Below are positions 9,674-48,708 of a DNA stretch of 59,994 nt, one piece after another. Location of the stretch: the IMG/VR virus record IMGVR_UViG_3300009514_000004, positions 78,387 through 138,380 of that record. One strand, 5' to 3'. The translations under genes and the position numbers were made by a program. This stretch comes from a virus. Numbering within the stretch: the stretch's first letter is position 1; the number at the start of each line of letters is the position of its first letter. A model generated the notes under the pieces. That model worked only from the letters and a program-made list of their open reading frames with translations, ran no database searches and was not told the DNA's origin.

Positions 9674-10924
9674 ATGCCACAACCACCAATGCTGGTAGAC
9701 GCCGTTCAGATCGAACCTGGGTCCGGCGACACGCTCCTCATCGAGAGGGACGCGACAACCGGCGCGATGACGTTCAGGGACGCGGTCATCACGACCCCGA
9801 TCACCCTGCAACAGATCGCCGGCCTCCCTTCGATCGAGAACATCATCACCGTCGGCAAGTCGGGCGCCGGGGCGCAGTACACGACCGTCACCGCCGCCCT
9901 GGCGACCATCCCCGCGACGGCCGGCCCGACCAACCCCTACCTCGTCCTGGTGGGCCCCGGCGTCTACAAGGAGACCTTCAACATCGTCCGGGACCACGTC
10001 ACCATCGTCGGTCTCGGCGGCGTCACCTTCCAGTCCCTCGCTGAGGACACCCCCAACGGCGTAGGCGCCGACAACACCGTCATCATCCACGCTGACCTGG
10101 GCACCATCCCCCGGCATGTGGTCCTGCGGAACCTGACCATCACCAACTCCCACGACCTGAAGTCCTGCGTCCGCGTCGTCGGTGCCGCGGCCTCGACGGT
10201 CGGTGCCGACATCATCCGCCTGGAGAACTGCTTCCTTCAGGCCACCGGGGCCGGGTACCCAATCCGGGCGAACTCGGTCAACCACGTGCACATGTACGGC
10301 GGGTCGATGCGAGGGTCAGCGTCCACCTCGCTTGTCTTGGCCGAGGAGTGCGCCAGCGTCCGCCTTCAGGACGTGGCCGAGACCACCGCACTTCAGCTCG
10401 ACTACGACACCACCGGGGACACCCCCTCGGCGGTGGGGTGCGACTACCGGATCCACGGTAGCGCTCAGGTGGCCATCGGCACTGCGCTGTCGCCACCGGT
10501 CAGCTCGACCCTCTCTGGCGATGGGCAGCTGACCCTGTCCAGCTGCGGCGAGGTCGGTGACGTCACGGTCGACGGCGACAGGTCGGTCCTGGTGGTGGGC
10601 TCCACGATCGGCGACCTGACCCTCAGCTCGACGACGGCGGGGACCCTGGTCGCGTCGAAGCGCGGCACGGCGACGGGGGCGACGGCCACCCTCGAGGAGC
10701 CTGTCCTTCGTGGCGGGGCTTCGTTCGCCGCATCGGCCTCGGAGGCGGTCGTCTTCGGTGTTCCGATGCCCGACGACGACTACACCGTGGGTCTCGAGCT
10801 GTTGGCCTCCCCTGGTTCGGAGAACACCTACATCACCAGCAAGAGTGCCACGGGGTTCACCATCAACTTCACTAGCGCTGTCACCTTGGATGTGGAGTGG
10901 ACAGCCATTCGGAGCTTCAGCTGA
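9674..10924 (+). CDS. virion protein with pectin-lyase-like beta-helix and C-terminal beta-sandwich
   Basis: VGKSG.GAQYTTV.AAL...LVLVGPGVYKE N-cap motif of right-handed beta-helix proteins. Confidence 0.65.
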   Translation: MPQPPMLVDAVQIEPGSGDTLLIERDATTGAMTFRDAVITTPITLQQIAGLPSIENIITVGKSGAGAQYTTVTAALATIPATAGPTNPYLVLVGPGVYKETFNIVRDHVTIVGLGGVTFQSLAEDTPNGVGADNTVIIHADLGTIPRHVVLRNLTITNSHDLKSCVRVVGAAASTVGADIIRLENCFLQATGAGYPIRANSVNHVHMYGGSMRGSASTSLVLAEECASVRLQDVAETTALQLDYDTTGDTPSAVGCDYRIHGSAQVAIGTALSPPVSSTLSGDGQLTLSSCGEVGDVTVDGDRSVLVVGSTIGDLTLSSTTAGTLVASKRGTATGATATLEEPVLRGGASFAASASEAVVFGVPMPDDDYTVGLELLASPGSENTYITSKSATGFTINFTSAVTLDVEWTAIRSFS

Positions 10925-33401: not shown

Positions 33402-34277
33402 ATGAGTGGTGTAACCAACGCAACCAAGCAGCGCATCATCTCAGAGTACATCCGTACTCCCGCCGGCCGGCAGAAGCTGGCGGCGTCGATGACGCAGCCG
33501 CTCCGTACCCGCCGCGACTACGCTGCGGTCGGCCGCAAGACCTTCTTGGTCGAGCAGCTCCCGGACGGCGCGCTCCCGATCTACGACAAAGACCCGGATG
33601 TCACGGCATACGTCGTCGGCGAGGAAGGCCAGAACATTCTGGCCATCACCAAGCCGCGGCGCGTGATCTTCCCGCTGTTCGAGATCGCGAGCAACCCGGA
33701 GATCCCGCTGACCCAGATCAAGGAGCGCAGGTTCGACCTGATCGAGCGCGCTCAGGAGCTGGCGAGGGCTCAGATCCAGGCCGCCGAGGACGAGCGCGTC
33801 TTCGCCATCCTGGACTCGATCGCGACGGCGGGCTTCGACTCGCTGCCGGCGCAGCTCAACCCCGACATCCCGGTCGTCGCCCCCATCTCGGGTGCGGTGC
33901 TCGCGGATGCCTTCGCTCTCGTGGAGCGTCACGACCTGCGGGTCGCGCGCGTCTTCATGAACGCGAGGGACTACGCGGACCTCCGCAAGTTCGGGCGGGA
34001 CATCCTCGACATCGAGACGCAGGCTCAGCTGCTGAAGACCGGCCTCATGGGAACCCTGTGGGGAGCCCAGGTCATCGTCAGCCGCCTCGTCCCCGTGTCG
34101 ACCGTCTATGTATGCTGCGAGCCCGAGATGTTCGGGCGCATCCCGGTGCGCACCGAGCTGACCGTGTTGTCGGCCGACGATCCCAAGGCTCGAACGATCG
34201 GATTCTCCGTGTTCGAGAACCTGGGCATCGGCGCCTACAACCCGCGCGGACTCACCCGTCTCACGATCACCCGCTAG
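33402..34277 (+). CDS. major capsid protein (HK97 fold, encapsulin-like type)
   Basis: GR.KLA.SM.QPLR...DY..VGRK...VE.LP.GALP.YDKD, PLFEIASNP.I, AQIQA.ED, G.LWGA motifs; followed by a terminator. Confidence 0.88.
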   Translation: MSGVTNATKQRIISEYIRTPAGRQKLAASMTQPLRTRRDYAAVGRKTFLVEQLPDGALPIYDKDPDVTAYVVGEEGQNILAITKPRRVIFPLFEIASNPEIPLTQIKERRFDLIERAQELARAQIQAAEDERVFAILDSIATAGFDSLPAQLNPDIPVVAPISGAVLADAFALVERHDLRVARVFMNARDYADLRKFGRDILDIETQAQLLKTGLMGTLWGAQVIVSRLVPVSTVYVCCEPEMFGRIPVRTELTVLSADDPKARTIGFSVFENLGIGAYNPRGLTRLTITR

Positions 34278-34306: not shown

Positions 34307-34345
34307 CAAAACCCCCGACCTTCACTGGTCGGGGGTTTTGTCGTT
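34307..34345 (+). terminator. intrinsic terminator (possibly bidirectional)
   Basis: CAAAACCCCCGACC/GGTCGGGGGTTTTG stem. Confidence 0.85.
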
Positions 34346-34440
34346 CTAGTCTTTTCATCCGCTGGTAGTTATCTACACTTCTAAACAATGTCATCACAGG
34401 CTCATTGACTCGGTCTCACGTTTGGTTTTAGTTTGTAAAG

Positions 34441-36390
34441 ATGAGGCAACCCCTGACACGATTGTGCTCTCCCGAGCAACTTCGACAGTGGTACGAGGTG
34501 GAACTGCTCTCGGAAAATGAGATCGCGCGACGGTTGGGTACCTACCAAGTCAACGTGGGGAGGCTTCGTCGGAAGTACGGAATCGAGACGATCACGAAGA
34601 CCGAGCGCATTGCTCGGCAGCTCCCTTCCGACCTGACCTTTGAGCAAGAACAGCTCATTGTAGGGTCGCTTCTGGGAGACGGGTGGATGACCGCTTCTAG
34701 CGAGGCGTCTGCGCGGTTCCATGAGGGTCATGCGATGAAACAGGCTTCCTACACCGACTGGAAAGCCGACCAGCTGAGGCCTTTCACTTCTAAGCGGTAC
34801 CCCACCACCAAACGCCAAGGAGGGAGGGAGTACCCTTGCTGGTATTTCGCCACCAAATCGTGCACCGTCCTCCGCCCCTACTACGACCTCTTCTACCCAA
34901 CCCCTGAGCGGAAACGGGTGTTTCCCTCGGACCTCTACAAGAGGATGACCCCTCTTGTCCTGTCTGTCTGGTACATGGACGATGGCAGCGTGACCAAGAG
35001 CGGTCACCCCCGCATCCATTTCGGTCTCGACCCCCTATCTCTCAAAAGGGCGCTCAGGGCTCTCCGGACATTGGGCCTCACACCCAAGGCTTATGGTGAG
35101 GAAGGGGACAAAGCCATCTGGTTCCCTAAACAGTCGCACGCTTTCTGTCAGCTCATCGAGCCGTATGTCTCGCAGGTTCCCTGTATGGTGTACAAGCTCC
35201 CGACAGAGACCCTTCGGCAGGAAGGCGACAGGAATGCCCGTAAGCTGACCGCGGAGGTCGCCGCGAACCTGTACGACGGGGGTATGTCCACCAAGGAGAT
35301 CGGTCGCCTCTACGACGTGAGTCCAAGTACCGTGAGCCGCCGTCTGTCTAGTGCGGAGGTAGTGAAACGCAGGTCGGGACCGCGGTCCCTCTCGTACACC
35401 CAGGAGGCCTCCTCCTCCCTCCTGGCAGGGTACGACTCCAAGAAATGGTCAGACCTCCCTCCAACCACTCAGGACACCTGGGTCGCGGAGGTTTTGCAGG
35501 TCCTGCGTGTCACCCCTTTTCCGACGACCCCAGCTTTCGATCGGGTGGCAGCTTTGAAAGCTTTGGGGAAAGTAGTCTCTGCTGAGATGCGGTTGGAGGA
35601 TTCCCGCGTGATGCCCATCCGCACGGTGGGGATCGGGTGCTGTTCTTCCTACTTCCCCAATCGGTACAAGGGAGCATCCCGAGGTACTCGGACTGCCTAC
35701 GAGGCGTGGTACAACGACCGGGAATTGGAGCGTGCCGTCAGGTTCCAGTTCCGGGTTGGCGATCCTGTGCAGCCTCACCGAGTGCTCCGGGCCGTGACGA
35801 TGAACTGTCGAACCCCGTCGGTGTTCCGACCTACCCTGGCCCGGTTCATCTACGACCGGTACTGCCCACCTGGAGGCAAAGTCTGGGATCCCTGTGCTGG
35901 GTTCGGAGGCCGTCTTTTTGGGGCTTGCGCGGCGGGGGTTCAGTACGTCGGTACGGATGTCGACCAGGAGACCGTGACTGGGAACCTACGGTTAGCTGAG
36001 GCTTTGGGATATCTAGCTGAGGTGCACCTGTGCCCCGCCGAGGAGTTCGACGCCCCTGAAGTCGATCTGGTGTTTACGTCGTCGCCGTATTTCAACCGAG
36101 AGCTGTACTCTCACGGGGCCAACCAATCCTGGGTGCGGCACGGGGACGATTTTGAGTCCTGGGTTGAGGGGTTCCTCCGCCCGGTGATACGGAAGGCTTA
36201 CCAGGTGAGCCCTCGTCTGGTGCTCAACGTGAGTGACATCCGCGTGGGAAAGGTTGTCGTTCCCCTGGAGGAGACCACCGTGCGGGTGGCTCTCGAGGAG
36301 GGGTTCCAGCTTGAGGAGACTTTGTACATGCCGCTCCCTAAACTGAACCGGACCGACCCCAAAGAGCCTTTTCTGGTTTTCAGTCGCTGA
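34441..36390 (+). CDS. HTH-LAGLIDADG endonuclease-HTH-DNA amino-methyltransferase fusion
   Basis: IVGSLLGDG and LSVWYMDDGS (LAGLIDADG_2); WDPCAGFGGRL SAM-binding motif I and FTSSPYF motif IV; lower GC3 than flanks. Confidence 0.8.
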   Translation: MRQPLTRLCSPEQLRQWYEVELLSENEIARRLGTYQVNVGRLRRKYGIETITKTERIARQLPSDLTFEQEQLIVGSLLGDGWMTASSEASARFHEGHAMKQASYTDWKADQLRPFTSKRYPTTKRQGGREYPCWYFATKSCTVLRPYYDLFYPTPERKRVFPSDLYKRMTPLVLSVWYMDDGSVTKSGHPRIHFGLDPLSLKRALRALRTLGLTPKAYGEEGDKAIWFPKQSHAFCQLIEPYVSQVPCMVYKLPTETLRQEGDRNARKLTAEVAANLYDGGMSTKEIGRLYDVSPSTVSRRLSSAEVVKRRSGPRSLSYTQEASSSLLAGYDSKKWSDLPPTTQDTWVAEVLQVLRVTPFPTTPAFDRVAALKALGKVVSAEMRLEDSRVMPIRTVGIGCCSSYFPNRYKGASRGTRTAYEAWYNDRELERAVRFQFRVGDPVQPHRVLRAVTMNCRTPSVFRPTLARFIYDRYCPPGGKVWDPCAGFGGRLFGACAAGVQYVGTDVDQETVTGNLRLAEALGYLAEVHLCPAEEFDAPEVDLVFTSSPYFNRELYSHGANQSWVRHGDDFESWVEGFLRPVIRKAYQVSPRLVLNVSDIRVGKVVVPLEETTVRVALEEGFQLEETLYMPLPKLNRTDPKEPFLVFSR

Positions 36391-36447
36391 TCACATCAGC
36401 CGGCGCCTGGACGAATGGGGTATCGCGTAACGCACAAGAGGTGCCCG

Positions 36448-36858
36448 ATGGATGATTTCGGGATCGGCTCGGGAGATGACCACGTCCAAGTCCAAAGGGG
36501 ACCCACCGACGACGAGCCTCCCTACTACATCTTCTCGGATGAGTTTGGGGCTGCGCGGGAAGCACTGATGTACCTAGCCGAAGGGGGTCAGGAGGTGATG
36601 CACATCACCGATGGAGGCGGTGGGTTTGCGGCCGAAGTTCGCGAGGGTCGCATCCAGGTGCAGGAGGGCTACTTCGGTCTGTTCGAGTTCGACTTGCAGG
36701 ATCTCGACATCTGGTGGGTGCAGATCGGGCACACGATGGTTTTTTCCCTCGAGACTCTCCAAGGGAGGTTGGGTGTCCTTATCCGTAAACCTCCTGAAAT
36801 TGTCGACAGTTCTTTGGTTGACGATGACGATTGGGACGCCTCTCTCGACAAAATCTAG
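36448..36858 (+). CDS. acidic hypothetical protein
   Basis: GAGG RBS at 36438. Confidence 0.55.
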   Translation: MDDFGIGSGDDHVQVQRGPTDDEPPYYIFSDEFGAAREALMYLAEGGQEVMHITDGGGGFAAEVREGRIQVQEGYFGLFEFDLQDLDIWWVQIGHTMVFSLETLQGRLGVLIRKPPEIVDSSLVDDDDWDASLDKI

Positions 36859-36877
36859 AGAAAGCGCGCTTTTCATG

Positions 36878-36906
36878 TTGACGGTCTCGAGGGTCTTCTG
36901 TAGAAC
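36878..36906 (+). promoter_or_regulatory. sigma70-like promoter
   Basis: TTGACG-17bp-TAGAAC. Confidence 0.55.
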
Positions 36907-36909
36907 CCC

Positions 36910-37255
36910 TCCTGCCTGGACGGGGCACCTCTCGAGAGGGAGGCGCGGCGAGCAGGCTGGCTGGTTCCCGAAAGGGGATCGACTACCCGATCTTTCAGAA
37001 CGGCGCGATCGAAGCTCCCACATCACACTGTGGTCGGTGCCAGGTAGAAGGCACACAACTGACCCTATGACGTGTGGGCGCGTCCGAGAGAGCGCACAGC
37101 CAAGACCGTTGACGACGGGGACGTGAAACACCGGCCCCGAGAGGCAAGCTGAACCGAGAGGGGATTTGCAGCCGAGCCAGCGGAACCCAACGCAGCTCCA
37201 CAAAAGCACCGCGGCGGGTGACGAACCTCTGACCTAACAGTCGGGGGTTTCGTCG
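36910..37255 (+). ncRNA. candidate structured non-coding RNA of unknown class
   Basis: No credible ORF; several stems with GNRA tetraloops; bounded by promoter and terminator. Confidence 0.5.
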
Positions 37256-37260
37256 TTTCT
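37220..37260 (+). terminator. intrinsic terminator
   Basis: GACGAACCTCTGAC/GTCGGGGGTTTCGTC stem followed by GTTTCT. Confidence 0.7.
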
Positions 37261-37331
37261 GGGGCCCGTGGTCCTAACTTGGGTCCGGGCGGGCAGGAGG
37301 AGGTCCAACTTGTGGCCTCCTCCCAACGCCT

Positions 37332-37712
37332 TTAGCGGTTGCACGCTGTGCAGGGGACGTACTCAGGCTCCGGGCGGACGCGGAACAGGGTCACGATGCC
37401 CGAGTGGGACTCGTTGTCGCCTTCGAAGTTGGCCTGGAAGCACCCCGGCTGAGGAGCGGGGGCACGCTCCGGTCGGTAGATGTCGATGTAGTACCCACCA
37501 CCATCGCTGAGAGTCACGCCGTCCAGGTCATCGTCGTCGAGACGTGGGAAAGCGTCCAGGGGAGCCGTCCCTTCCATGGGGGCGTCGTCGCCGTCCCTGG
37601 TGAACGCGTAGAATATCTCCTCGCCATCCAGCTTCCGAAGCTGGTTGAAGGTGAGGGCCGGTCCGTACCGGCGGTCACGCCCTGTGGCCTTGTCGTATTC
37701 TTGCTGGCTCAT
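37332..37712 (-). CDS. hypothetical (early-type) protein
   Basis: AAGGAG RBS, typical codon bias, own promoter motif. Confidence 0.7.
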   Translation of the reverse strand: MSQQEYDKATGRDRRYGPALTFNQLRKLDGEEIFYAFTRDGDDAPMEGTAPLDAFPRLDDDDLDGVTLSDGGGYYIDIYRPERAPAPQPGCFQANFEGDNESHSGIVTLFRVRPEPEYVPCTACNR

Positions 37713-37741
37713 GTAATGCTCCTTGCGGTTGAGGTTACACC

Positions 37742-37773
37742 CTCTCTACGAAGGTGTCCGGAGAGCTAAGCAA
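37742..37773 (-). promoter_or_regulatory. putative early promoter TTGCTTAG-N14-TCGTAGAGAG
   Basis: Identical boxes and spacing at 39591-39622. Confidence 0.65.
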
Positions 37774-37778
37774 AATTC

Positions 37779-37808
37779 GGTGGTCTCTCTATACCTCCGG
37801 TCCAGTAG
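37779..37808 (+). promoter_or_regulatory. putative late promoter
   Basis: GGT-ggtctct-CTAT-N13-TAG. Confidence 0.65.
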
Positions 37809-37826
37809 ACGGACTGGAGAACCTGC

Positions 37827-38570
37827 ATGAGCGACCACGACAACGACCTCCGAAAGGCCATTCAGAAGCTCGCGTGCGAGAACCCCGACGCACGGAAGCA
37901 TCTGGTGCCGATCTTGCGTCGTACGGCGCGTTACGACCTGTCTCGCACCAACTGGAGCGGAGAGGTCAAGGGATCCAAGGTCCGGATCCGGTGGAACCGC
38001 GACAGCCTCCTGATCGAGGAGCTGCCGGGCAAGCCCTTCAAACGCAAGCTCAAGCAGACGATCTTCCTCCTGGGCCGGGCCATGCCAGGCTACGACGTCC
38101 CCAGCGCGTTCATCATGGACAACCTCCTTCGGGACGCCAAGTTCTCCTCGAGCATGGACCACGGCAAGGCCGTCAAGGCTTTCGAGAAGGCGCTCCAGGA
38201 GGCCAAGAAGGTCTCCAAGGACATCATGCCCGACTGGATGGCCAAGGCCGTCGACAACCTCGCGGAGACCGACGACGTCTTCTACCTGGAGGTCGAGCCG
38301 GCCGACTCCGAGCCGATGACGGTCGAGGCCAAGGACTTCTCCGTCCACGCCGCCTGGGGCCGGTTCAAGGCCTACAGCCCCAGAGGCATCGACCCCCAAG
38401 AGGGCATGGGAGACTTCATCCAGTCGAAGTCTCCGAAGTCGGCGCGGAAGTTCTTCAAGATGGCCAAGGCCAAGCCGGACCTCCTCAAGAGGACCTCCTG
38501 GTCGGACTTCATGAAGTGGCTCGGCGACAACAAGATCGCCTACGACTACGTCGGGAGCGTCTGGCGCTAG
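37827..38570 (+). CDS. putative capsid-internal protein with shared leader (paralogue of 11499)
   Basis: MSDHDNDLRKAIQKLACENPDARKHLVPILRRTA leader; GGAG RBS. Confidence 0.75.
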   Translation: MSDHDNDLRKAIQKLACENPDARKHLVPILRRTARYDLSRTNWSGEVKGSKVRIRWNRDSLLIEELPGKPFKRKLKQTIFLLGRAMPGYDVPSAFIMDNLLRDAKFSSSMDHGKAVKAFEKALQEAKKVSKDIMPDWMAKAVDNLAETDDVFYLEVEPADSEPMTVEAKDFSVHAAWGRFKAYSPRGIDPQEGMGDFIQSKSPKSARKFFKMAKAKPDLLKRTSWSDFMKWLGDNKIAYDYVGSVWR

Positions 38571-38839
38571 ACCTTCTCGAAACTGTTGGCCCAGGCGAAC
38601 CACCCGATTGACCTGGGGCCGTCGAGGCCGGTGTGCTCACGCTTGAAACAGGCGATCCTGGGACCCCCACCCCGAGGACCAGTCTTCAGCTTGAACGCGG
38701 TCCCGACCCAGCCCCGGCTGGTCTTGACCCGTCCGACATTCTCAGCTGCCCAGGCGTTCACAACGGCGGCCTTGATGGCCTCGGACACGGTGAAGTCGCC
38801 GCTTTCCACGCGACGTTTGATGACCGACAGTACGCTCAT
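38567..38839 (-). CDS. small hypothetical protein
   Basis: GGGAG RBS, ATGA overlap with upstream gene; start reassigned to MSVLSV. Confidence 0.55.
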   Translation of the reverse strand: MSVLSVIKRRVESGDFTVSEAIKAAVVNAWAAENVGRVKTSRGWVGTAFKLKTGPRGGGPRIACFKREHTGLDGPRSIGWFAWANSFEKV

Positions 38840-39177
38840 GTGGACCACTCCCGGATTTCCGTCTTGGTGAGATCCGACCGGCGCGCGAAGAACTCGCGGT
38901 TTTTTGGGTCCTGAGCCGCCCACTTCTTGCCCACCCCGACCGCGAAGGCTTTGGTGAACTCGCCGCTCAGGATGAGCTTGCGGCCATCGAGGCCGGTGGC
39001 TGACCGGACGTTCCAACCACTCGAGCATTTGACCAGCTCCGCGGATTCGCGACCCGCGCAGAACTGGTCTTTCTGGATGTCGGTGAGCGCGTCGCCGGCG
39101 TTGGCTCGCCTGAGCATTTCCTTGTCCCACCTGGAGGGATCACCCCCGAGGAGGACGAAGCCTTCTTTGTTGAGCAT
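38836..39177 (-). CDS. small hypothetical protein
   Basis: GGGAG RBS, operon packing. Confidence 0.6.
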   Translation of the reverse strand: MLNKEGFVLLGGDPSRWDKEMLRRANAGDALTDIQKDQFCAGRESAELVKCSSGWNVRSATGLDGRKLILSGEFTKAFAVGVGKKWAAQDPKNREFFARRSDLTKTEIREWST

Positions 39178-39188
39178 CTGTGGTCTCC

Positions 39189-39395
39189 CTACTGGAAGAT
39201 GCTGAGGTCTTCGGCGGCGCCGCGGGCCTCTCGATAGTTGCGGTCGTAGCGATCACCCTCGACGGGCTCGCCGGTGACCTGCTCCTGGATGAAGTCCAGG
39301 AGGCCGCGGAGGGCCCACGCCTCGTCGATCTCGCCGTTGTCGGCTTTGCGGCTGAGGGCTTTGTCGATGGTGTCGAACGCTTGCTCGAGGGTCAT
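39189..39395 (-). CDS. small hypothetical protein
   Basis: GGAG RBS before MTLEQAF. Confidence 0.6.
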   Translation of the reverse strand: MTLEQAFDTIDKALSRKADNGEIDEAWALRGLLDFIQEQVTGEPVEGDRYDRNYREARGAAEDLSIFQ

Positions 39396-39397
39396 GA

Positions 39398-39571
39398 TCA
39401 GCTCCGGTTGTAGTCGAGGCGGGCGGCGCGGCAAGCCTTCTTGCCGCGATGGCGGCACTTGGTCTCGATGGCTTTCTCTTGGCGGTTCGGGGAGCGTCGG
39501 GATGCGTGACCGTGACGTACGACCCACGTCTTGTCCGAGCTATGTCCTTGTGACTTGCGACCGACCTGCAT
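39398..39571 (-). CDS. small basic hypothetical protein
   Basis: AGGAGG RBS before MQVGRK, first gene after promoter motif. Confidence 0.55.
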   Translation of the reverse strand: MQVGRKSQGHSSDKTWVVRHGHASRRSPNRQEKAIETKCRHRGKKACRAARLDYNRS

Positions 39572-39590
39572 ATACGCCTCCTGGTTCGCT

Positions 39591-39622
39591 CTCTCTACGA
39601 GGAACGGCGGGATTCTAAGCAA
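39591..39622 (-). promoter_or_regulatory. putative early promoter TTGCTTAG-N14-TCGTAGAGAG
   Basis: Second copy of the 37742 motif. Confidence 0.65.
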
Positions 39623-39631
39623 TGCTCTTTC

Positions 39632-39660
39632 GGTTTCGAGTCTATGTCCTCCCCCTGTAG
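39632..39660 (+). promoter_or_regulatory. putative late promoter
   Basis: GGT-ttcgagt-CTAT-N12-TAG. Confidence 0.55.
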
Positions 39661-39672
39661 TAGGAGGTCAAG

Positions 39673-42600
39673 GTGGCCAAAGACCGAGAAGTGACGCTAG
39701 AAAACGGGGTTCCGACTTACCGGACCACGTCGGACAACATCGAAGACTTCAACAACGCCTCCGGTCAGGTGGCGGTCAACGATGCTGTCTACCTGTCCTC
39801 CGACGACACGGTGTCCAAGGCGATCAACACGGACACCACCCAGGAGGTCATCGGACTCGTTTTCGAGACGCCGACGGCGACGACGTGCCGGGTGCTCACC
39901 TGGGGCATCATCTTCGATTTCGACACGGGGATGACCGTCAACGACCGCTACTACCTCGGCGGCACGGCGGGTGAGCTGACTACGACGAAACCGACCGGCG
40001 GCGGAACCTTCGCACAGGTTGTCGGCATCGCCGTCAACGGGACCGATCTCCTGGTTGTCCCTCAGGTGGGCATCACCGAGATCGACACCAGTGTCACCCT
40101 CGACGACGCCTACGACAACGGCCACACCGTCGCCGTCGACGACGGCGCGATGCTCCTGAACCTGACCTACGACGCCTCCCCGAGCGCCGGTGAGGGGTTC
40201 ACCGGCATCGAAATCAACGTCGGTACGGCGGCCGGCGACCTGTCCAACAAGTCGACGGGGTTCGAGTACACCCTCGGCGCCGGAGCCTACACTGCCGAGC
40301 AGCGCGGCATCTTGGTTGATTTCAGCACCGCGACGTCGCTGACCGACGCCGGTGGGAATCCCTCATACGGCATCGAGCTTCTGGGTGAGTCCCAGACGTC
40401 TGGAGATTCTGTAGGTCTCTATGTCGACGCGGGTTGGGACTACGGGATCCGCCTGGTAGAGGACCAGTACATCCAGTTCGGCAGCGACGCGACGGATTTC
40501 GGGACTATCCGGTGGATTGACGCCGCGGGCTGCGTTGCGTTCGAGCTAGACGACAACGCCAATGACGCGTTCCATTTCATCGGCCCCATCGGGATGCTCG
40601 GGGATACGTCGGGGACACCTTACGGGCTGACGACGTCGGGCTCGGACACGGGGTTCTCCATGTCGGTCATGGCCGACCAGGATGCCTCGAGCATCGCCCT
40701 GGCTGGTATCGTCGTCGACTGGCGTGGCGACAACGCCAGCAACGTCCCTGCGACCGGCTCGAACGGGCCTTCCTACGAGGCCTTGAAGATTCGGGTGTAC
40801 GCGGACGCCGGCGACACGGATGCGACGGCCAACTACTTCGGCGCCCGTATCATCTGCGAGGACGACAGTGGGTCAGCGGTCAAGACAGGCCTGCGGGTCG
40901 AGTCTGGCGGTGGCGGCGACGCCTGGGACCGTGGGATCGAAATCGACCAGGACTTCGCTGGGGGAACAGCGTTCGCTCTCTCGATGGGCGACGACAACGA
41001 CCTGAAGTTCTACCACGACGGGACCGACTCGAAGATCGACAACGGCACCGGCGATCTGGTCCTCGACAACCAGGCCACAGGGTTCATCCACCTTCAGTCG
41101 GGCAACGACACCACCACGACCGGAACGAAGATCCTCAACAACTCGGGGACTGAGCTGGCGTTCTTCCGTTCCGACGCCAACCACATCTACAACTCGAGCG
41201 GGCGCTTCAACGACGACTTCTACTTGTACTTCGGCACCGACACCGACTGGCAGTTCCAGTACGCCGACACCGGCAACGCGTTCACGATCGCCAACCCCAA
41301 CACCCCGGCCAACAACGTGGTCGGCAGCCCCTTTACTGTGACCGGACAGGTCGGCGCGGCAGGCGGGAGCGGCAACGCAGGGACCGTGGGGACCACGTTC
41401 TCCTGGACGGCGGGTACGGGTGGTGCTGCTTCAACAGCTGGTGGTGAGACCGCTGGTGTCGGTGGCGACTACTTCAGCTTCGGCGGGACCGGAGGCGCGG
41501 CGTCGACCGCGTTCGCCGGCGCCACGGGCGGTGAGGCCCAGTTCGCCGGCGGCTCTGGTGGTGCTGGTTCCGCGGCGCAGGCGGCTGGCAGTGGTGGTCG
41601 GTTCAAGGCCTACGGTGGAGCTGCGGGCGCTGACGGCGGCGGTGGTGGTGGCACTGGCGGTGCGGTCGAGATCGACGGCGGCACAGGAGTCACCGGCGGT
41701 ACGGTCCAAATCAACGGCGGTCTCGGTGGGACTACCGACGGCGATGTCCAGATCGGTCAGAGCAACACCAACGACATCACCTTGGGCGCCAGCAACGCGA
41801 CCATCACACAGACAGGTACGGGTCAGGTTACGTTCGCCGGCAACGTGGATGCGGACGCTGGGCTCGACGTCGAGGGCAACTTCACCCACGCGACCAGTGG
41901 GACGGGTGATATCGACCGCGCCTGGGATTTCTCTGGGGGTCTGACGAATTCTGCTGGAGAGCTGCTCGTTTCCGGCGGCAACGTCCAGCTGGACGACGAC
42001 ATCCTCTTGAGCTTCGGTACGAGCGACGACGTCACCATGGAGTGGAACGGCAGTGCCTTGGAGGTACTGCCAGCGGTGGATGACTCGTCTTGGCGGTGGG
42101 GTAACGGGACCAACTCGTTCGTCATGTTCTGGTTCGGCAATAGCGCCTCGGACACCATGACGTGGGACGCAGCTACTAACAGCCTCACCCTGAGCGACAA
42201 CGTCGACCTCCACATCGGCAACAGCCAAGACCTCACGCTCGTCCACAACACGACCAATTCCGTGGTCACGTCGACGACGGGCGACCTGATCATCGACAAC
42301 ACCAACACCTCTGGGCAGACCATCGCGCGTCTGGGCACAGATACGAACGCGACGGATTTCGAGGTCCAGAACAACTCAGGCATTGCGCTGATGACGGTCG
42401 ACGGCGCTGGGGCCGTGACCATCCCTGGGGACCTGACGGTCAACGGGACGATGACGACGGTCAGCTCCGAGTCCCTGAACATCACCAACAGCCACATCAC
42501 CCTCAACTCCGACTACAACACGGCTTCGGACATCGACGGTTGCTTGGTTGTCATCGTCGCGGGTGAGGGAACCACGGACACCGTAGCGGCGACCGGTTTC

Positions 42601-45600
42601 GAGTCTCAGGCGACCACTGGTGGCGACGCGAAAATCCACACCACAGGAGCCGCTACGTTCTCGGCCGGCGACCTGCTTCAAGTCGCTGGCGCGAACACGG
42701 ATGCCAACGACGGCATCTATGAGGTCTCGGCGCACGCGTCCAACGAGCTGACGGTCAAGGCTTCCCCCCACGTGTCCGCTGGGTTCGTGTCCACGGATTT
42801 CACCGACGACACCGACACCTCGGGAACCCTTTCCAAGATCGTCGTCAACATCCTCAAGTCCAACACCGACGGCACCTGGGAGATCTCAGGCGAGGTCGAT
42901 GCCACTCCGATTACCTACTCGACCCTGGCGACGGCGACCGGCGCGCTGACCCTCGACGACGCCTACACGAACGGCCGGACCATCACCCAGGACCTCGGTC
43001 CCATCGTCATCAACGGCGACGCCACGACCACAGGCGGGGCCCTGGACATCAACCCCGATGTCCTGGCGGAGACGAGCTACCAGGTCGACGTCAGTTGGGC
43101 GGCGGGCAACTACACAGGGACCTTGGGCGGGCTCAATGTCGATTACAGCACCGCTACGAGCCTCTCCAATGCTTCCGACATCGTTGGAGTCCGCCTCGAC
43201 GGCATCACCAACGGCGGCGGAGGGGAATCTGTCGGGCTCGACATCTTGGGTACCTGGGACATCGGCATCCGGGTCGCAGATGGGATCCCGGTCAACCTGG
43301 GGTCGGGGACCTGGGTAGCGACTCCCGCGTCCACCGGCATCACCTGGGCAGGTTCCGCGGGCTCGAGTGCAACTGGCACCATCTGGTCAGCTACCGCCGG
43401 CGCCGGCGACACCGGGTTCAACGGCGGCTCTTTCTCTTGGACTGCGGGTGCAGGCGGGGTCGCTGACGTTTCCAATGAGGGCGGAGAGGGTGGTCAGCTC
43501 TCGCTGACTTCCGGGGATGGTGGAGATGCCACCACCAGCAACAATGCCGGACCAGGCGGAGCGGTAGGGCTCACTGGGGGTGCCGGAGGGACGGGAGCAT
43601 CTGGTGTCGCCGCCGGCGACGGCGGGAGCATCCTGTTCACCGCGGGCGATGGTGGCGCGGCCAACGGTGGCACCGCAGGTGCGGGTGGCGGCATTCGGAT
43701 GGATGCTGGCGATGGCCTCACGGCCGGCAACATCAACTTGGGTATCAACAAGGCCGCGACCATCAACCTCGGCAACACAGCCGATGCGACCAACGTCGAC
43801 CTACCTGACGACGTCACCCTCCGGTTCGGTGACGGCGCCGACGCGCAGCTCAAGTGGGATGGTGCTCAGCTTGAAGTCGTGCCCGCGACCGACCACGCGG
43901 ACTGGGCATGGGGGTCCAGTGGCGGCAGCGCATCCTGGAGCATCATCTGGTACGGCACGAGCGCGTCGAACTATTTCTTCTGGGACTCGACCGGCGACCG
44001 GCTCCAGTTCGACAACGCCTCGATCGCTATCGACGATGATCAGACGGTCGGGTTCGGCAACATCACCAACCCGGATGTCGCCATCGAGTGGGACACCTCA
44101 GGTGGCGGCGGCAACGAAATCTGGTTGTTCGACCGGCTGGGGGCCGGCAACTCGACCACGGTCTTCCGCATGGGGGCCGACACCACCGGTCAGAGCTTCA
44201 TTGTCCAGAACGGGTCGGCCGCTGACATCATGCGGATCTACGGCGACTCCTCGGCGGATTTCACCGTGGCCGACAACCTGGCCACCGCTTTCCGGATCTG
44301 GGACGGGACCGACGAATACCTCAAGGTCACCACGACCAACGACTCCGAGGTGATCGCGCTGGGTAACACCAGCACGAACCCCGACCTGACGCAGCTGGGC
44401 ACCGGCCAGGTGACCTTCGCGGGCAATGTCGACGCCAATGCTGGGGTCGACCTACCTGACGACATCGAGCTGGTCTTCGGTTCCGACAGCGACATCACCA
44501 TCGACTACAACTCGACCTTGAACGCTTTCTTGGTCTCCGGGGCCAATGCGACCGGTCAGTCCGGCGGTGTCGGGATCGCAGGTGCCCGGTTCGATTTCTT
44601 CGGCGGCAATGGCGCTGATGCGGTAGCCAACACCAATACAGGTGGTGCGGGTGCGAACTTCCGTGCCTTCCCCGGAGACGGTGGAAGCGCAGCTGAAGGT
44701 ACCTCCGGCCAGGAACGAGACGCCGGGGACGGCGGCATCTTCACTTTCACCGCCGGAGTCGGGGGCTCTGGCTCAGGGGCGACTGACGCAGCCAACGCGG
44801 CTGGTGACGGCGGTGGCGGCGGAACCATCAACATCACCGGTGGCAAAGGCGGGACGGCTTCGGAGGCGTCGGGGTCGGGCACTGACCACGGCGCTGCTGG
44901 TGGGGGCGGCAACGTTTCTATCTTGGCCGGGCAAGGCGGCAACGGTACCGCTTCCGAGGTTAGTGGGGACGGAGGCACCCTTACCCTTCGCGGTGGTGCT
45001 GCGGGAACGGATAACGGCGGAGGTGCCGGAACGGCGGGAACCGTAAGCATCGGCGACTCCAACACCGCGACCCTCAACCTGGGGAACTCGACCGATCAGA
45101 CCAACATCGACATCCCAGACAACGTCACCATGCGGTTCGGCACCGGCAACGATGCACAGTTGCGTTGGGACGGCACGGACATGGACGTTCTCGCAGCTGC
45201 CGACGACCAGGTCTGGAAATGGGGCGACGGCACCAACTCGTGGGACATGTGGTGGTACGGGAACACGGCGTCGAACACCGTGGTCCTCGACGCATCTGCG
45301 GACACCTGGACGTTCGACGCTGTCGATCTCCACATCGGCGACGACGACAACCTCGTCTTCGGTGACGGAGCCGACGTTGCCATGTACTGGGACGGCCAGA
45401 TGCGGTTCATCCCTGCTGTGGACGGCACCAACCTGTGGTGGGGTAACGGGACCGAATCTTTCGACATTTTCTGGTTGGGGTCGTCGGGCGGCAACTCGAT
45501 GGCCTTCAACTCGGCCGCCGACCAGTTCTCGTTGGCCGCCATCGATTTCTTCGTTGACGGTGGTGACGCCGATTTCAACATGGTCGACAACACCAACTCG

Positions 45601-47028
45601 GCGTTCCAGGTCAGGGAGGACACCAACGCTTACATCGACATCGACACGACCGACTCGAGTGAGCTGATCACCATCGGTAACTCGACCACGAATCCTGACA
45701 CCACGTTCGCCGGGACCGGGACCGTCACGTGGGAGGGCAACCCGAACACCAACACGGTCGAGTGGCGGAGCGCCTCCAATTTCATGCTGTTCAACGGAGC
45801 CGATCTCCAGTTTGGGGATGATGACGAGCTTCGGTTCGGTGACAACAGTGAAATTCAGATCCAGTACACCACATCGGACACTTTTCTGATTCAGCCGGTC
45901 AACGACAACACCCTGCTGTACTTGGGTGGGACTGGTGGGTCGGCCAGTTTCGACGTCATTTGGACAGGGTCGACCAGCGGAAACGACATCCGCATGAATT
46001 CGAACACCGATGTGATGACCCTGGACGGCATCGACCTCACCGTGACGGGGGCTTTGAACACCACGGGGACGGTCGACATCGACCTCACCGACAACACGGC
46101 CCAGGCGTTGCTCATTGCGGAAGGTATTCGGGCCTACATCGACGTCGGGACGACCGATGCCGGAGAGTCCGTCACCTTCGGCAACGCCACCACCAACCCC
46201 GTCTACAGTTTCGTAGGGAGCGGGACGACGACGTTTGGGGGTGACGTCGAGTTCCAGGCCGACATCACCATCGACGACAACACAGCCAGCGTGTTCACGA
46301 TCATCGAGGGGTCGAACAACTACCTCAACATCACCACGACCAACAGCAACGAGATTATCCAGTTCGGCAACGCCACCACCAACCCCGATTTTTCGTTCTT
46401 GGGGACAGGCACCGCCGACTTCCAGGGGCCGTTGACCATTGACGGGACCATCCGGCTCACCAACGAATCGGATCCCACCAACGTGTCGGGCAATGGGTTC
46501 GTCTACGTCAAGGACGTCGCGACGATCTCCGAGCTGTACTACCTGGACGACACGGGGACGGCCACCCAAATCACGACCAACGGCGCCGTCACCCTCACGG
46601 AGTACATCAGCGTCCGTCGGACAGCGGTGGCGACAACCAGCCCGGACACCGAGTTCAACCCGCTGGGGACCACTACCCCCGGCGGGACGATGGCGACCGA
46701 CGCCGACAGCGGTGACATCACGTTCACCTCGACCACCGGCGTGTTCACCATCCCGTCAACAGGCGCCTACGAGTTCATCGTCACGCTGTATCTCACCCAG
46801 TCTGGCGGTGGCGTTTTGGACAGCTTCTTCCTGGAGAAGAACGGCACCACGACCATCTGGACAGGCAACGCCTTGATTCACCAGTCGGTCGACCCCAGCT
46901 GCCGGTCGTTTTCGGTCATCGTGGATTTGGCGGCCTCAGACACCGTGGAAGTGCGGGTCGACAGCAGTGGCTCCACGACCTTGACGGCTGAGCTAGGCTG
47001 CTCCTGCACGATCAAGAGGATCAGCTAA
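39673..47028 (+). CDS. giant Gly/Thr/Asp-rich fibre protein (head or tail fibre) with C-terminal C1q/TNF-like domain
   Basis: 2451 aa; N-terminal cement-like domain (VAVNDAVYL..IGLV..YYLG..GEL..TKP..QVVGIA), GG/AG-rich tracts, repeated FG...D...W modules, GVFTIP..GAYEF tip. Confidence 0.75.
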   Translation: MAKDREVTLENGVPTYRTTSDNIEDFNNASGQVAVNDAVYLSSDDTVSKAINTDTTQEVIGLVFETPTATTCRVLTWGIIFDFDTGMTVNDRYYLGGTAGELTTTKPTGGGTFAQVVGIAVNGTDLLVVPQVGITEIDTSVTLDDAYDNGHTVAVDDGAMLLNLTYDASPSAGEGFTGIEINVGTAAGDLSNKSTGFEYTLGAGAYTAEQRGILVDFSTATSLTDAGGNPSYGIELLGESQTSGDSVGLYVDAGWDYGIRLVEDQYIQFGSDATDFGTIRWIDAAGCVAFELDDNANDAFHFIGPIGMLGDTSGTPYGLTTSGSDTGFSMSVMADQDASSIALAGIVVDWRGDNASNVPATGSNGPSYEALKIRVYADAGDTDATANYFGARIICEDDSGSAVKTGLRVESGGGGDAWDRGIEIDQDFAGGTAFALSMGDDNDLKFYHDGTDSKIDNGTGDLVLDNQATGFIHLQSGNDTTTTGTKILNNSGTELAFFRSDANHIYNSSGRFNDDFYLYFGTDTDWQFQYADTGNAFTIANPNTPANNVVGSPFTVTGQVGAAGGSGNAGTVGTTFSWTAGTGGAASTAGGETAGVGGDYFSFGGTGGAASTAFAGATGGEAQFAGGSGGAGSAAQAAGSGGRFKAYGGAAGADGGGGGGTGGAVEIDGGTGVTGGTVQINGGLGGTTDGDVQIGQSNTNDITLGASNATITQTGTGQVTFAGNVDADAGLDVEGNFTHATSGTGDIDRAWDFSGGLTNSAGELLVSGGNVQLDDDILLSFGTSDDVTMEWNGSALEVLPAVDDSSWRWGNGTNSFVMFWFGNSASDTMTWDAATNSLTLSDNVDLHIGNSQDLTLVHNTTNSVVTSTTGDLIIDNTNTSGQTIARLGTDTNATDFEVQNNSGIALMTVDGAGAVTIPGDLTVNGTMTTVSSESLNITNSHITLNSDYNTASDIDGCLVVIVAGEGTTDTVAATGFESQATTGGDAKIHTTGAATFSAGDLLQVAGANTDANDGIYEVSAHASNELTVKASPHVSAGFVSTDFTDDTDTSGTLSKIVVNILKSNTDGTWEISGEVDATPITYSTLATATGALTLDDAYTNGRTITQDLGPIVINGDATTTGGALDINPDVLAETSYQVDVSWAAGNYTGTLGGLNVDYSTATSLSNASDIVGVRLDGITNGGGGESVGLDILGTWDIGIRVADGIPVNLGSGTWVATPASTGITWAGSAGSSATGTIWSATAGAGDTGFNGGSFSWTAGAGGVADVSNEGGEGGQLSLTSGDGGDATTSNNAGPGGAVGLTGGAGGTGASGVAAGDGGSILFTAGDGGAANGGTAGAGGGIRMDAGDGLTAGNINLGINKAATINLGNTADATNVDLPDDVTLRFGDGADAQLKWDGAQLEVVPATDHADWAWGSSGGSASWSIIWYGTSASNYFFWDSTGDRLQFDNASIAIDDDQTVGFGNITNPDVAIEWDTSGGGGNEIWLFDRLGAGNSTTVFRMGADTTGQSFIVQNGSAADIMRIYGDSSADFTVADNLATAFRIWDGTDEYLKVTTTNDSEVIALGNTSTNPDLTQLGTGQVTFAGNVDANAGVDLPDDIELVFGSDSDITIDYNSTLNAFLVSGANATGQSGGVGIAGARFDFFGGNGADAVANTNTGGAGANFRAFPGDGGSAAEGTSGQERDAGDGGIFTFTAGVGGSGSGATDAANAAGDGGGGGTINITGGKGGTASEASGSGTDHGAAGGGGNVSILAGQGGNGTASEVSGDGGTLTLRGGAAGTDNGGGAGTAGTVSIGDSNTATLNLGNSTDQTNIDIPDNVTMRFGTGNDAQLRWDGTDMDVLAAADDQVWKWGDGTNSWDMWWYGNTASNTVVLDASADTWTFDAVDLHIGDDDNLVFGDGADVAMYWDGQMRFIPAVDGTNLWWGNGTESFDIFWLGSSGGNSMAFNSAADQFSLAAIDFFVDGGDADFNMVDNTNSAFQVREDTNAYIDIDTTDSSELITIGNSTTNPDTTFAGTGTVTWEGNPNTNTVEWRSASNFMLFNGADLQFGDDDELRFGDNSEIQIQYTTSDTFLIQPVNDNTLLYLGGTGGSASFDVIWTGSTSGNDIRMNSNTDVMTLDGIDLTVTGALNTTGTVDIDLTDNTAQALLIAEGIRAYIDVGTTDAGESVTFGNATTNPVYSFVGSGTTTFGGDVEFQADITIDDNTASVFTIIEGSNNYLNITTTNSNEIIQFGNATTNPDFSFLGTGTADFQGPLTIDGTIRLTNESDPTNVSGNGFVYVKDVATISELYYLDDTGTATQITTNGAVTLTEYISVRRTAVATTSPDTEFNPLGTTTPGGTMATDADSGDITFTSTTGVFTIPSTGAYEFIVTLYLTQSGGGVLDSFFLEKNGTTTIWTGNALIHQSVDPSCRSFSVIVDLAASDTVEVRVDSSGSTTLTAELGCSCTIKRIS

Positions 47029-47240
47029 CGGCAGGACCGGGGTGACGACAGGACAGCTACCTCGTCACTTTCCGGGTCGAAGCCCAACCTCACGACCCGG
47101 CTCAGTTCCCTCTGTTGCTGACGCCAGCGGAGGATCCTGTGCCTTCCCGGCCATACTCCGCACACTCCCCGCCCGATTTTGGGTCGCCCGGGGGTCTTCT
47201 TGCTGCACTTGCTGCACCCGCCTGACCTGCTTCTCGCCAT
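47025..47240 (-). CDS. small basic Cys-containing hypothetical protein
   Basis: GGAGG RBS before MARSRSGGCSKC. Confidence 0.45.
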   Translation of the reverse strand: MARSRSGGCSKCSKKTPGRPKIGRGVCGVWPGRHRILRWRQQQRELSRVVRLGFDPESDEVAVLSSPRSCR

Positions 47241-47453
47241 CTGGACCTCCACTGGGCGCGGGCGTTACCCGCGCGTTCGTGTAGATCCCCGGCCGGTGGG
47301 GAGGGTTCAGGAAGGTAATCCAGTACCAAGGGAAGGGCATGGATTCACGGTACGTCCAGCCCCTTCCGGAAGGAAGTCCTTTCTGTCCGTCCCAGAGGGA
47401 TCGGGCCCGGGGTAACGTAGGAGCGTTGCGAGGATGACTTCCTGGGATTGAGG

Positions 47454-47757: not shown

Positions 47758-48708
47758 ATGGTCCAGCAAGCTACGTTCCGTGAGGATGGCGTGACCGAGT
47801 TCAAAAGGGGTGATTTCCAGTCTTTTCGCGCGACGGCTGACATTCGGGTAGGTAATCCGGTCGACAAGACCATCAAGGTGGACCAGACCATCGAGTTCGA
47901 CGGCTCCGTCGTCATCTACAACGGCGAGGAGTTCTCCAAGCCCAACCTCAAGGGCGCGGTCGACAAGGGGTGGCTGGTTCCTATCGAGGACACCGAGTCG
48001 AGTTACGTCCCCGAGCCTGCCGACATCCGTGTGGGCCCGGCCGACAACGCCGGTGCCAAGCGCGAGAAAAGGATGCGCATCGAAACGGCCGTCGAAGACG
48101 AGCAGTTCGTCGGCACCGTCGCAGAAGCCACCGCCAAGCGCAAGGAAGGGCAGAAGGTCGCGCAGAACCGCCGCGCCGCCCGGGCACAGAAGAGGCGGAA
48201 GGCGGCGTCGTCCAAGCCGCGGGCCAAGACCCAGGCCCCGGATCCCCCGTCGACCCGCAAGAAGTTCCCTATCGAGCTGGACGCCGCAGACCAGGACGCT
48301 GTGCCCGTGGCCAAGATCGTCAGCGAGGCGGTCAAGCGTCCCCGGGTCGACGACCCCAACAAGGCGCGCCGAGAGGTCCAGCGCCTCGACTCCACCAAAG
48401 GTCACTCTCCGGTGGAGACCGAACGCATCGAGACATCGGGGGATGTCGAGGAGCCTATCACCGGCGACAGCGTCGAGGATGTTCTCCCGGAGGCAATCTC
48501 GACAGGAAAGCCAGCGCCGACGGTCATGGCCCAGGACGGTTCGGAGATCGAGTGGGACATGTCTCGGCACTGGCGGTCACGCCTCTCGGATGCCTTGCGG
48601 CTGGCCAAAGAGGACCGCGGGGCCTTCAATCACGTGATGGCCATGGAAACGCCCAAGCTCAAGAAGCACATCCGCGCGGCCATGGCGCCCAAGAAGCCTA
48701 CCCAGTAA
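47758..48708 (+). CDS. hypothetical protein
   Basis: Long ORF with typical codon bias; C-terminal WD...HW..R motif. Confidence 0.7.
   Translation: MVQQATFREDGVTEFKRGDFQSFRATADIRVGNPVDKTIKVDQTIEFDGSVVIYNGEEFSKPNLKGAVDKGWLVPIEDTESSYVPEPADIRVGPADNAGAKREKRMRIETAVEDEQFVGTVAEATAKRKEGQKVAQNRRAARAQKRRKAASSKPRAKTQAPDPPSTRKKFPIELDAADQDAVPVAKIVSEAVKRPRVDDPNKARREVQRLDSTKGHSPVETERIETSGDVEEPITGDSVEDVLPEAISTGKPAPTVMAQDGSEIEWDMSRHWRSRLSDALRLAKEDRGAFNHVMAMETPKLKKHIRAAMAPKKPTQ

Follow-up and report, generated by a model that had tools for sequence, protein, structure and literature searches.

T4-like phages carry free-standing homing endonuclease cassettes, exemplified by the seg and mob genes, whose mobility is known as 'intronless homing'. 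In bacteria, some small RNAs derived from 3'UTRs, such as DapZ and MicL, are made from a promoter of their own and are referred to as 'type I'. Phages are also associated with large, ornate RNAs, GOLLD and ROOL (Weinberg et al. 2017, PMC5737381), for which cryo-EM structures are available (bioRxiv 10.1101/2024.12.08.627333).

The locus described here can be compared with each of these systems. It lies in a window of 59,994 nt, which corresponds to bases 78387-138380 of a 138-kb IMG/VR contig rated as about 26% complete. Within this window, a gap of 473 nt (36859-37331), to which no strand is assigned, separates two converging genes, p147 (36415-36858, plus strand) and m126 (37332-37712, minus strand). 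A preliminary description had read most of this gap (36878-37260) as a candidate stand-alone structured RNA with its own promoter and terminator. The reading preferred here, with a probability of about 0.5, is that the gap belongs to a free-standing homing-endonuclease cassette and forms its non-coding tail.

The cassette sits behind the gene for the major capsid protein (33402-34277, plus strand; 291 aa). This protein has 557 IMG/VR relatives at 87-96% identity, and the contigs that bear them reach 536 and 619 kb, while the scaffold-like protein adjoining the capsid is only about 50-63% identical in those same relatives. From this difference it follows that the phage is a lone representative of a diverse huge-phage family, without a close relative in the collections searched. 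Across this family, with its contigs of up to 619 kb, a single head protein, the capsid, is conserved unusually strongly; the DNA of the capsid relatives (loci L002-L081) spans 44% to 64% GC. The capsid protein aligns with its relatives over residues 1-291 and to the end of the Pfam profile. Its gene is followed by a terminator (34307-34345, plus strand) built on a perfect 14-bp inverted repeat, which has a fold energy of -29.3 kcal/mol (z = -5.4) and is symmetric between the strands (-29.3 and -29.6 kcal/mol).

Directly beyond this terminator is a gene of 649 codons (34441-36390, plus strand) that encodes a homing endonuclease of the LAGLIDADG and HTH type. It matches Pfam LAGLIDADG_2 at 1.5e-25 and a PHROG homing endonuclease family at 3e-22; its matches to HTH families are weaker and fall under the Pfam cut-offs, and its C-terminal part is weakly methyltransferase-like, with a faint N6_N4_Mtase match below the curated cut-off (E = 0.016). 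In many relatives, homologues with 27-57% identity are found at this position behind the capsid terminator; other relatives lack them. The gene is thus intergenic, adjacent to a conserved gene and variably present, as is characteristic of free-standing homing-endonuclease cassettes. More generally, LAGLIDADG/HTH endonuclease genes have a hotspot directly behind the capsid terminator, where a given relative may have none, one, or two to three tandem copies; relatives with such genes behind the capsid include L006, L012, L013, L015, L017, L027, L028, L041, L046, L059, L060, L063 and L080. The DNA 3' of the endonuclease differs in every relative, and the gap sequence is present in none of them.

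The endonuclease gene is preceded by a sigma-70-like promoter, TTGACT-18-TAGTTT (34405-34434, plus strand), recognised by pattern match. TTGAC-type promoters also precede the endonuclease genes of relatives. With the ATG only 6 nt after the -10 element, the predicted transcription start falls on the ATG itself, and the mRNA looks leaderless, which would fit an actinobacterial-type host.

In several respects this arrangement resembles the seg and mob cassettes of T4-like phages. An endonuclease gene with its own promoter lies between conserved genes and beside a highly conserved, target-like gene, here that of the capsid; it is variably present among relatives, and small genes without relatives lie alongside. 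The cassette differs from seg and mob in its enzyme, which belongs to the LAGLIDADG/HTH type, has a weakly methyltransferase-like tail and is only putatively capable of homing, and in its end, made up of about 360 untranslated bases and a duplicate of the neighbouring gene's terminator. The association of a LAGLIDADG gene with a GNRA-containing non-coding stretch of ribozyme-like size also recalls group I introns with LAGLIDADG ORFs. This identity was rejected: the capsid gene is uninterrupted and is followed by its terminator at 34307-34345, and no intron model matches.

The whole cassette measures 2.9 kb and comprises the endonuclease gene followed by p147, bracketed by two terminator copies. 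The capsid terminator has as its 3' arm and U-tract the 18-mer GTCGGGGGTTTYGTCGTT, of which the 138 kb contain exactly two copies: one at 34328 and one, 2912 nt away, at 37240. The two enclose the endonuclease gene, p147 and the gap. The right terminator has 17 of 18 bases in common with 34328-34345. About 35 nt can be aligned between the two terminators, with no similarity beyond; a search for another copy of the capsid 3' end ahead of the right terminator found none.

Such direct repeats of about 35 nt flanking a 2.9-kb cassette would result from one crossover with a circular donor, and they lend something to the idea that the gap functions as DNA rather than RNA, as a recognition or immunity site of the endonuclease or as a recombination joint of the cassette. 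The repeats account for the ends but not for the 310-nt body, which holds no further repeats, or palindromes beyond ordinary hairpins. In addition, the drift of the right terminator keeps RNA pairing on one strand only, which points to selection at the RNA level. A DNA-level site is accordingly considered very improbable.

The gap itself is truly non-coding. The preliminary description had noted that no ORF here has a coding-like bias, and composition agrees: GC content by codon phase is flat over 36860-37260, whereas both flanks show the genome-typical low-GC second position. None of the six frames of the gap has positive codon log-odds (values of -0.23 to -0.37 bits per codon), while each flanking gene, p147 and m126, has one frame with positive values. 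Neither the codon-phase composition nor the codon bias in one frame that marks a protein-coding gene is therefore seen. Of the long ORFs that run through the gap, neither the plus-strand one (36611-37126) nor the minus-strand one (36574-37209) has a Pfam or PHROG match. The GC content of the gap is 0.63, which is typical of the genome, whereas other nearby intergenic DNA is richer in AT.

This genome-like composition hints at some constraint or at a recent coding past. A decayed gene of the variable region behind the capsid, either a second cassette gene or a paralogue of the gene at 47758-48708, with its promoter and terminator left over, would be one such past. The surroundings are favourable to this idea, since the region from the capsid to the 47758 gene is hypervariable and filled with genes without relatives, and some relatives carry two or three tandem endonuclease genes here. 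In addition, frame +0 at 36922-36990 reads GAP..R..A..AGWLVP, which resembles the best-conserved motif of the 47758 gene family and is the top non-self match of that family's profile across the contig. The match is short, however: six-frame tblastn over all loci and the contig gives E = 0.08, and a profile of 30 family members gives 6.6 bits (E = 1.4), as expected of the top chance match. No frame holds another collinear match, the gap gives no match to endonuclease-family profiles, and no residual codon periodicity remains. The GWLVP motif in the gap is probably a coincidence, and descent from a decayed gene appears unlikely.

The region concerned has features of its own. In the fetched loci, nearly all genes between the endonuclease and the 47758 gene (36415-47000) are without relatives, and this stretch can be regarded as a hypervariable cargo region. 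The 47758 family lies 5.4 kb behind the capsid gene in L041, compared with 13.5 kb in the window, where its member is at 47758-48708. Close by, at 37746-38611, two ORFs of 285 aa and one of 247 aa overlap on opposite strands; a codon-usage score of 178 and a 33%-identical homologue in L123 indicate the plus-strand frame 37827-38570 as the real gene among them.

Short coding frames within the gap were also considered, for example a 23-codon, TTG-initiated frame at 37167-37238 that is preceded by GAGAGGGGA and ends in the terminator loop. A purine-rich, Shine-Dalgarno-like run lies about 1 nt 5' of the TTG, but TTG is itself a point against the frame, there is no codon bias in any frame, no homologues were found, and the frame is shorter than the length reported by the ORF listing. 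That one or more such micro-ORFs explain the gap is hardly credible.

Elements that could direct transcription lie at both ends of the gap. A promoter-like site, TTGACG-17-TAGAAC (36878-36906, plus strand), is present where the preliminary description had placed a promoter. It shares the motif TTGAC(N1-2)GGTCTC with the endonuclease promoter, and, with a TAG at -10 distance after it, this motif has just two occurrences in the 138 kb, at 34405 before the endonuclease and at 36878 in the gap. The promoter motif is in this sense duplicated, like the terminator. The site is a candidate promoter for the RNA, although its -10 element TAGAAC is without the consensus final T and a consensus scan calls no promoter at 36878-36906.

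The terminator at the other end, which the preliminary description had also recognised, is confirmed by a terminator scan and by its fold energy. It is an intrinsic terminator (37220-37262, plus strand), the diverged right copy of the capsid terminator, and consists of a hairpin (-21.0 kcal/mol, z = -4.2) with a U-rich run after it. As minus-strand RNA, these bases fold to just -13.5 kcal/mol. At two positions the capsid copy has C where this one has T, and the resulting G.U pairs exist only in plus-strand RNA, so that by fold prediction this terminator would work only as plus-strand RNA. Upstream of it, no stable hairpin was found between the p147 stop and 37220: the fold of 36855-36885, at -1.2 kcal/mol, is worse than that of shuffled sequences, and sliding z-scores are flat. 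The first strong hairpin 3' of p147 is thus the terminator itself. On the opposite side, a GC-rich hairpin directly 3' of the m126 stop (37287-37331, minus strand; -27.3 kcal/mol, z = -3.5 on the minus strand) is probably the terminator of m126, albeit without a U-tract.

Together, the promoter-like site and the genuine plus-strand terminator make plus-strand transcription of the gap likely. Since there is no terminator between the p147 stop and 37220, the gap would be at least the 3'UTR of the endonuclease-p147 transcript, and the claim of a stand-alone RNA becomes doubtful, even with a promoter-like site and a terminator in place. A separate RNA of about 345 nt, starting near G36914, is possibly made in addition.

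The non-coding tail of a homing-endonuclease cassette would then be organised as follows. On the plus strand, the cassette would run from its promoter through the LAGLIDADG endonuclease gene and p147 to about 360 untranslated bases and a terminator; it would sit right behind the terminator of the capsid gene and end in a diverged copy of that same terminator. A host-type RNA polymerase that starts at the endonuclease promoter would meet no stop before 37220-37262, and the gap would be transcribed as a long 3'UTR. These bases may also be made as an RNA of their own, about 345 nt long, from the second and weaker promoter-like site that lies immediately 3' of the p147 stop. Finally, the tail terminator would stop cassette transcription before it enters m126 in antisense, which suggests an insulating role. 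Termination is the only function of the gap that its anatomy can be considered to demonstrate.

This organisation has a parallel in the type I small RNAs. As with DapZ and MicL, a promoter-like site is found where the upstream coding region ends, and the putative RNA shares the rho-independent terminator of the mRNA. The gap follows a coding region of the same strand and has its intrinsic terminator in common with that mRNA, as is expected of RNAs of this type. Unlike DapZ and MicL, the putative RNA is larger (about 345 nt) and is without conservation.

The further proposal, that the gap is a specially structured RNA (ribozyme-like, a sponge or an anti-defence RNA), rested on a series of hairpins and loops. 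The listed sequence elements are indeed present: CCUCUC-GAGA-GGGAGG at 36928-36943, GGUUCCC-GAAA-GGGGAUC at 36964-36981 and a nested arm at 37014-37081. Folded from the predicted start, the 5' half gives a tidy, modular model with pair probabilities of 0.7-0.99. It is predicted to begin with a hairpin capped by a GAGA tetraloop (36914-36957, plus strand; pair probabilities 0.91-0.98; -24.6 kcal/mol), for which z = -2.9 with boundaries chosen after folding. This hairpin is followed by a predicted multibranch domain (36958-37102, plus strand; z = -2.7, again with boundaries chosen after folding), which includes the GAAA hairpin, a competing GAUCG hairpin and a long nested arm at 37003-37095. The 3' half (37106-37219, plus strand) is weakly defined, with two CGAGAG words, z-scores of -0.8 and -1.6 and pair probabilities of 0.56-0.89. 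A candidate long-range closing helix would pair 36908-36916 with 37292-37300; it competes with the m126 hairpin and needs read-through of the terminator.

These features do not exceed the background. For 36905-37262, the z-score of the minimum free energy is -1.33 on the plus strand and -1.94 on the minus strand, and for the body without the terminator (36914-37219) it is -1.44. In sliding windows of 120 nt, the body ranges from +0.9 to -1.5, and the terminator block alone stands out, at -3.9. Domains cut at the predicted helix ends reach z = -2.7 to -3.1, values that result from choosing the boundaries after folding: when 348 control segments of the window, most of them coding, are cut in the same way, their domains average z = -1.9, and 28% reach -2.7. 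The only clearly non-random hairpins are the two terminator ones (z = -4.2 and -3.6).

The loop motifs fare similarly. GNRA loops on stems of at least 4 bp number two only. Beyond the first GAGA hairpin, the preliminary description had pointed to further C-GAGA-G loops; three more CGAGAG words do occur, at 37085, 37138 and 37155, but they form no stable tetraloop hairpins, and a single one of the four copies caps a stem of at least 4 bp. Four copies are striking against the genome-wide rate of this word, yet some 6-mer occurs four times in 20% of the genome's 350-nt windows. Both the folding stability of the body and its cluster of loop motifs are at background level. A sponge RNA similar to CsrB or RsmZ was rejected, as the repeated loop motif is no commoner than chance. 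In GC-rich phage DNA, such hairpins, GNRA loops and repeated short words arise at background frequency.

Searches for known RNA families were likewise negative, in agreement with the expectation that the gap belongs to none. Rfam 15, whose scope includes group I and II introns, RNase P, tmRNA, 6S, SRP, GOLLD, ROOL, HEARO, OLE, raiA and Y-RNA-like families, gives zero matches at the gathering threshold over the whole window. When matches with E <= 10 are admitted over 36600-37500, there are only two, both eukaryotic and at chance level (MAT2A_E at 17 bits and mir-1281 at 16.6 bits). ARAGORN detects no tRNA or tmRNA in the window, as the preliminary description had supposed for the gap. Like GOLLD and ROOL, the gap is phage-borne, non-coding, several hundred nucleotides long and has GNRA loops. 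Unlike them, it is not beside tRNA genes, its folding stability is ordinary and it matches no Rfam family even at E <= 10; identity with GOLLD or ROOL is excluded by the Rfam scans.

Homologues of the gap are absent from all sequences searched. None was found by blastn in INPHARED phages, by blastn and nhmmer in 80 + 62 related loci fetched via the capsid and scaffold proteins, or by DNA search in five related genomes of 220-620 kb, and there is no second copy within the 138-kb contig. A two-hairpin pattern gives 27 chance matches in viral contigs, without extended similarity, and a version coded in purines and pyrimidines gives 0 matches in metagenome contigs. Exact 18-mers have 11 and 25 matches in genome and metagenome contigs, respectively, which barely extend past the seed. 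A covariance model of the 5' half, R1 (36914-37102), has no match in the five big relatives, recovers itself alone in the contig, and in the 142 loci gives matches at E of 0.47 or more only; the best of these, L002:1938-2028 (E = 0.47), lies inside a coding region.

The flanking genes are equally isolated. The product of p147, the last gene of the cassette, has no Pfam or PHROG match and no relative in viral contigs, and it matches itself alone among 5.8 billion protein clusters. The m126 protein likewise matches itself alone among the 5.8 billion clusters, with no relative in viral contigs or in the five big related genomes. Because both flanking proteins are unique, synteny cannot guide the search for homologues.

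A stand-alone structured RNA of about 345 nt (36914 to about 37258), made early by the host RNA polymerase from its own promoter and acting in trans as a protein sponge, an anti-defence decoy or a partner of the endonuclease or p147, is a less likely alternative, at well below even odds. Its attractions are the promoter-like site and strong terminator on the same strand, loops that are of GNRA type on the plus-strand reading only, a 5' hairpin that starts at the predicted transcription start and leads into a half with high pair probabilities, and a GC content that is genome-like rather than AT-rich. Set against these are an overall z of just -1.3 to -1.4 with domain values that are ordinary for boundaries chosen after folding, a CGAGAG cluster at chance level, a -10 element without the conserved final T and the lack of any Rfam family even at E <= 10. 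Moreover, neither sequence nor covariance-model searches find a homologue in relatives, there is no second copy on the contig, and both neighbour genes lack relatives. With a body z of -1.44, a motif cluster at chance and no homologue, the claim of a specially structured RNA was not upheld.

Some observations do count against a plain tail. A 3'UTR of 360 nt at a GC content of 0.63 is long for a tightly packed phage, the well-defined modular fold of the 5' half begins exactly at the predicted start, and an internal promoter-like site would be superfluous for a plain 3'UTR. It is conceivable, though doubtful, that a structured RNA gene of about 345 nt, specific to the lineage, belongs to the cassette, is expressed early from a host-type promoter and aids the selfish element or the phage. 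Such an RNA might, for instance, act together with the endonuclease or p147, regulate one of them, or serve as a decoy for a host defence. To our knowledge, mobile nuclease cassettes do not carry RNA genes of their own, and the locus would then represent a mobile 'endonuclease plus RNA' module without a described counterpart. The importance of the locus would rise only if a discrete, conserved RNA were shown to travel with the endonuclease.

If, on the other hand, the gap is simply the tail of the endonuclease cassette, the locus is another free-standing homing-endonuclease cassette, here with a long untranslated tail. Its value would lie chiefly in the annotation of the huge-phage family, where the site behind the capsid is a cassette hotspot. 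For now, the gap is best treated as an ordinary orphan spacer or untranslated region.

Two other stretches of the contig are worth recording. Within the window, about 420 nt (47029-47447) between an ORF of 2451 aa and the conserved gene at 47758-48708 form a second gap in which no gene is called. Outside the window, the contig stretch 9786-10450 holds the only other near-consensus sigma-70-type site of the contig, TTGACT-17-TATAGT. After this site come about 550 nt in which no gene is obvious, and next a tRNA-like sequence near 10375-10450.
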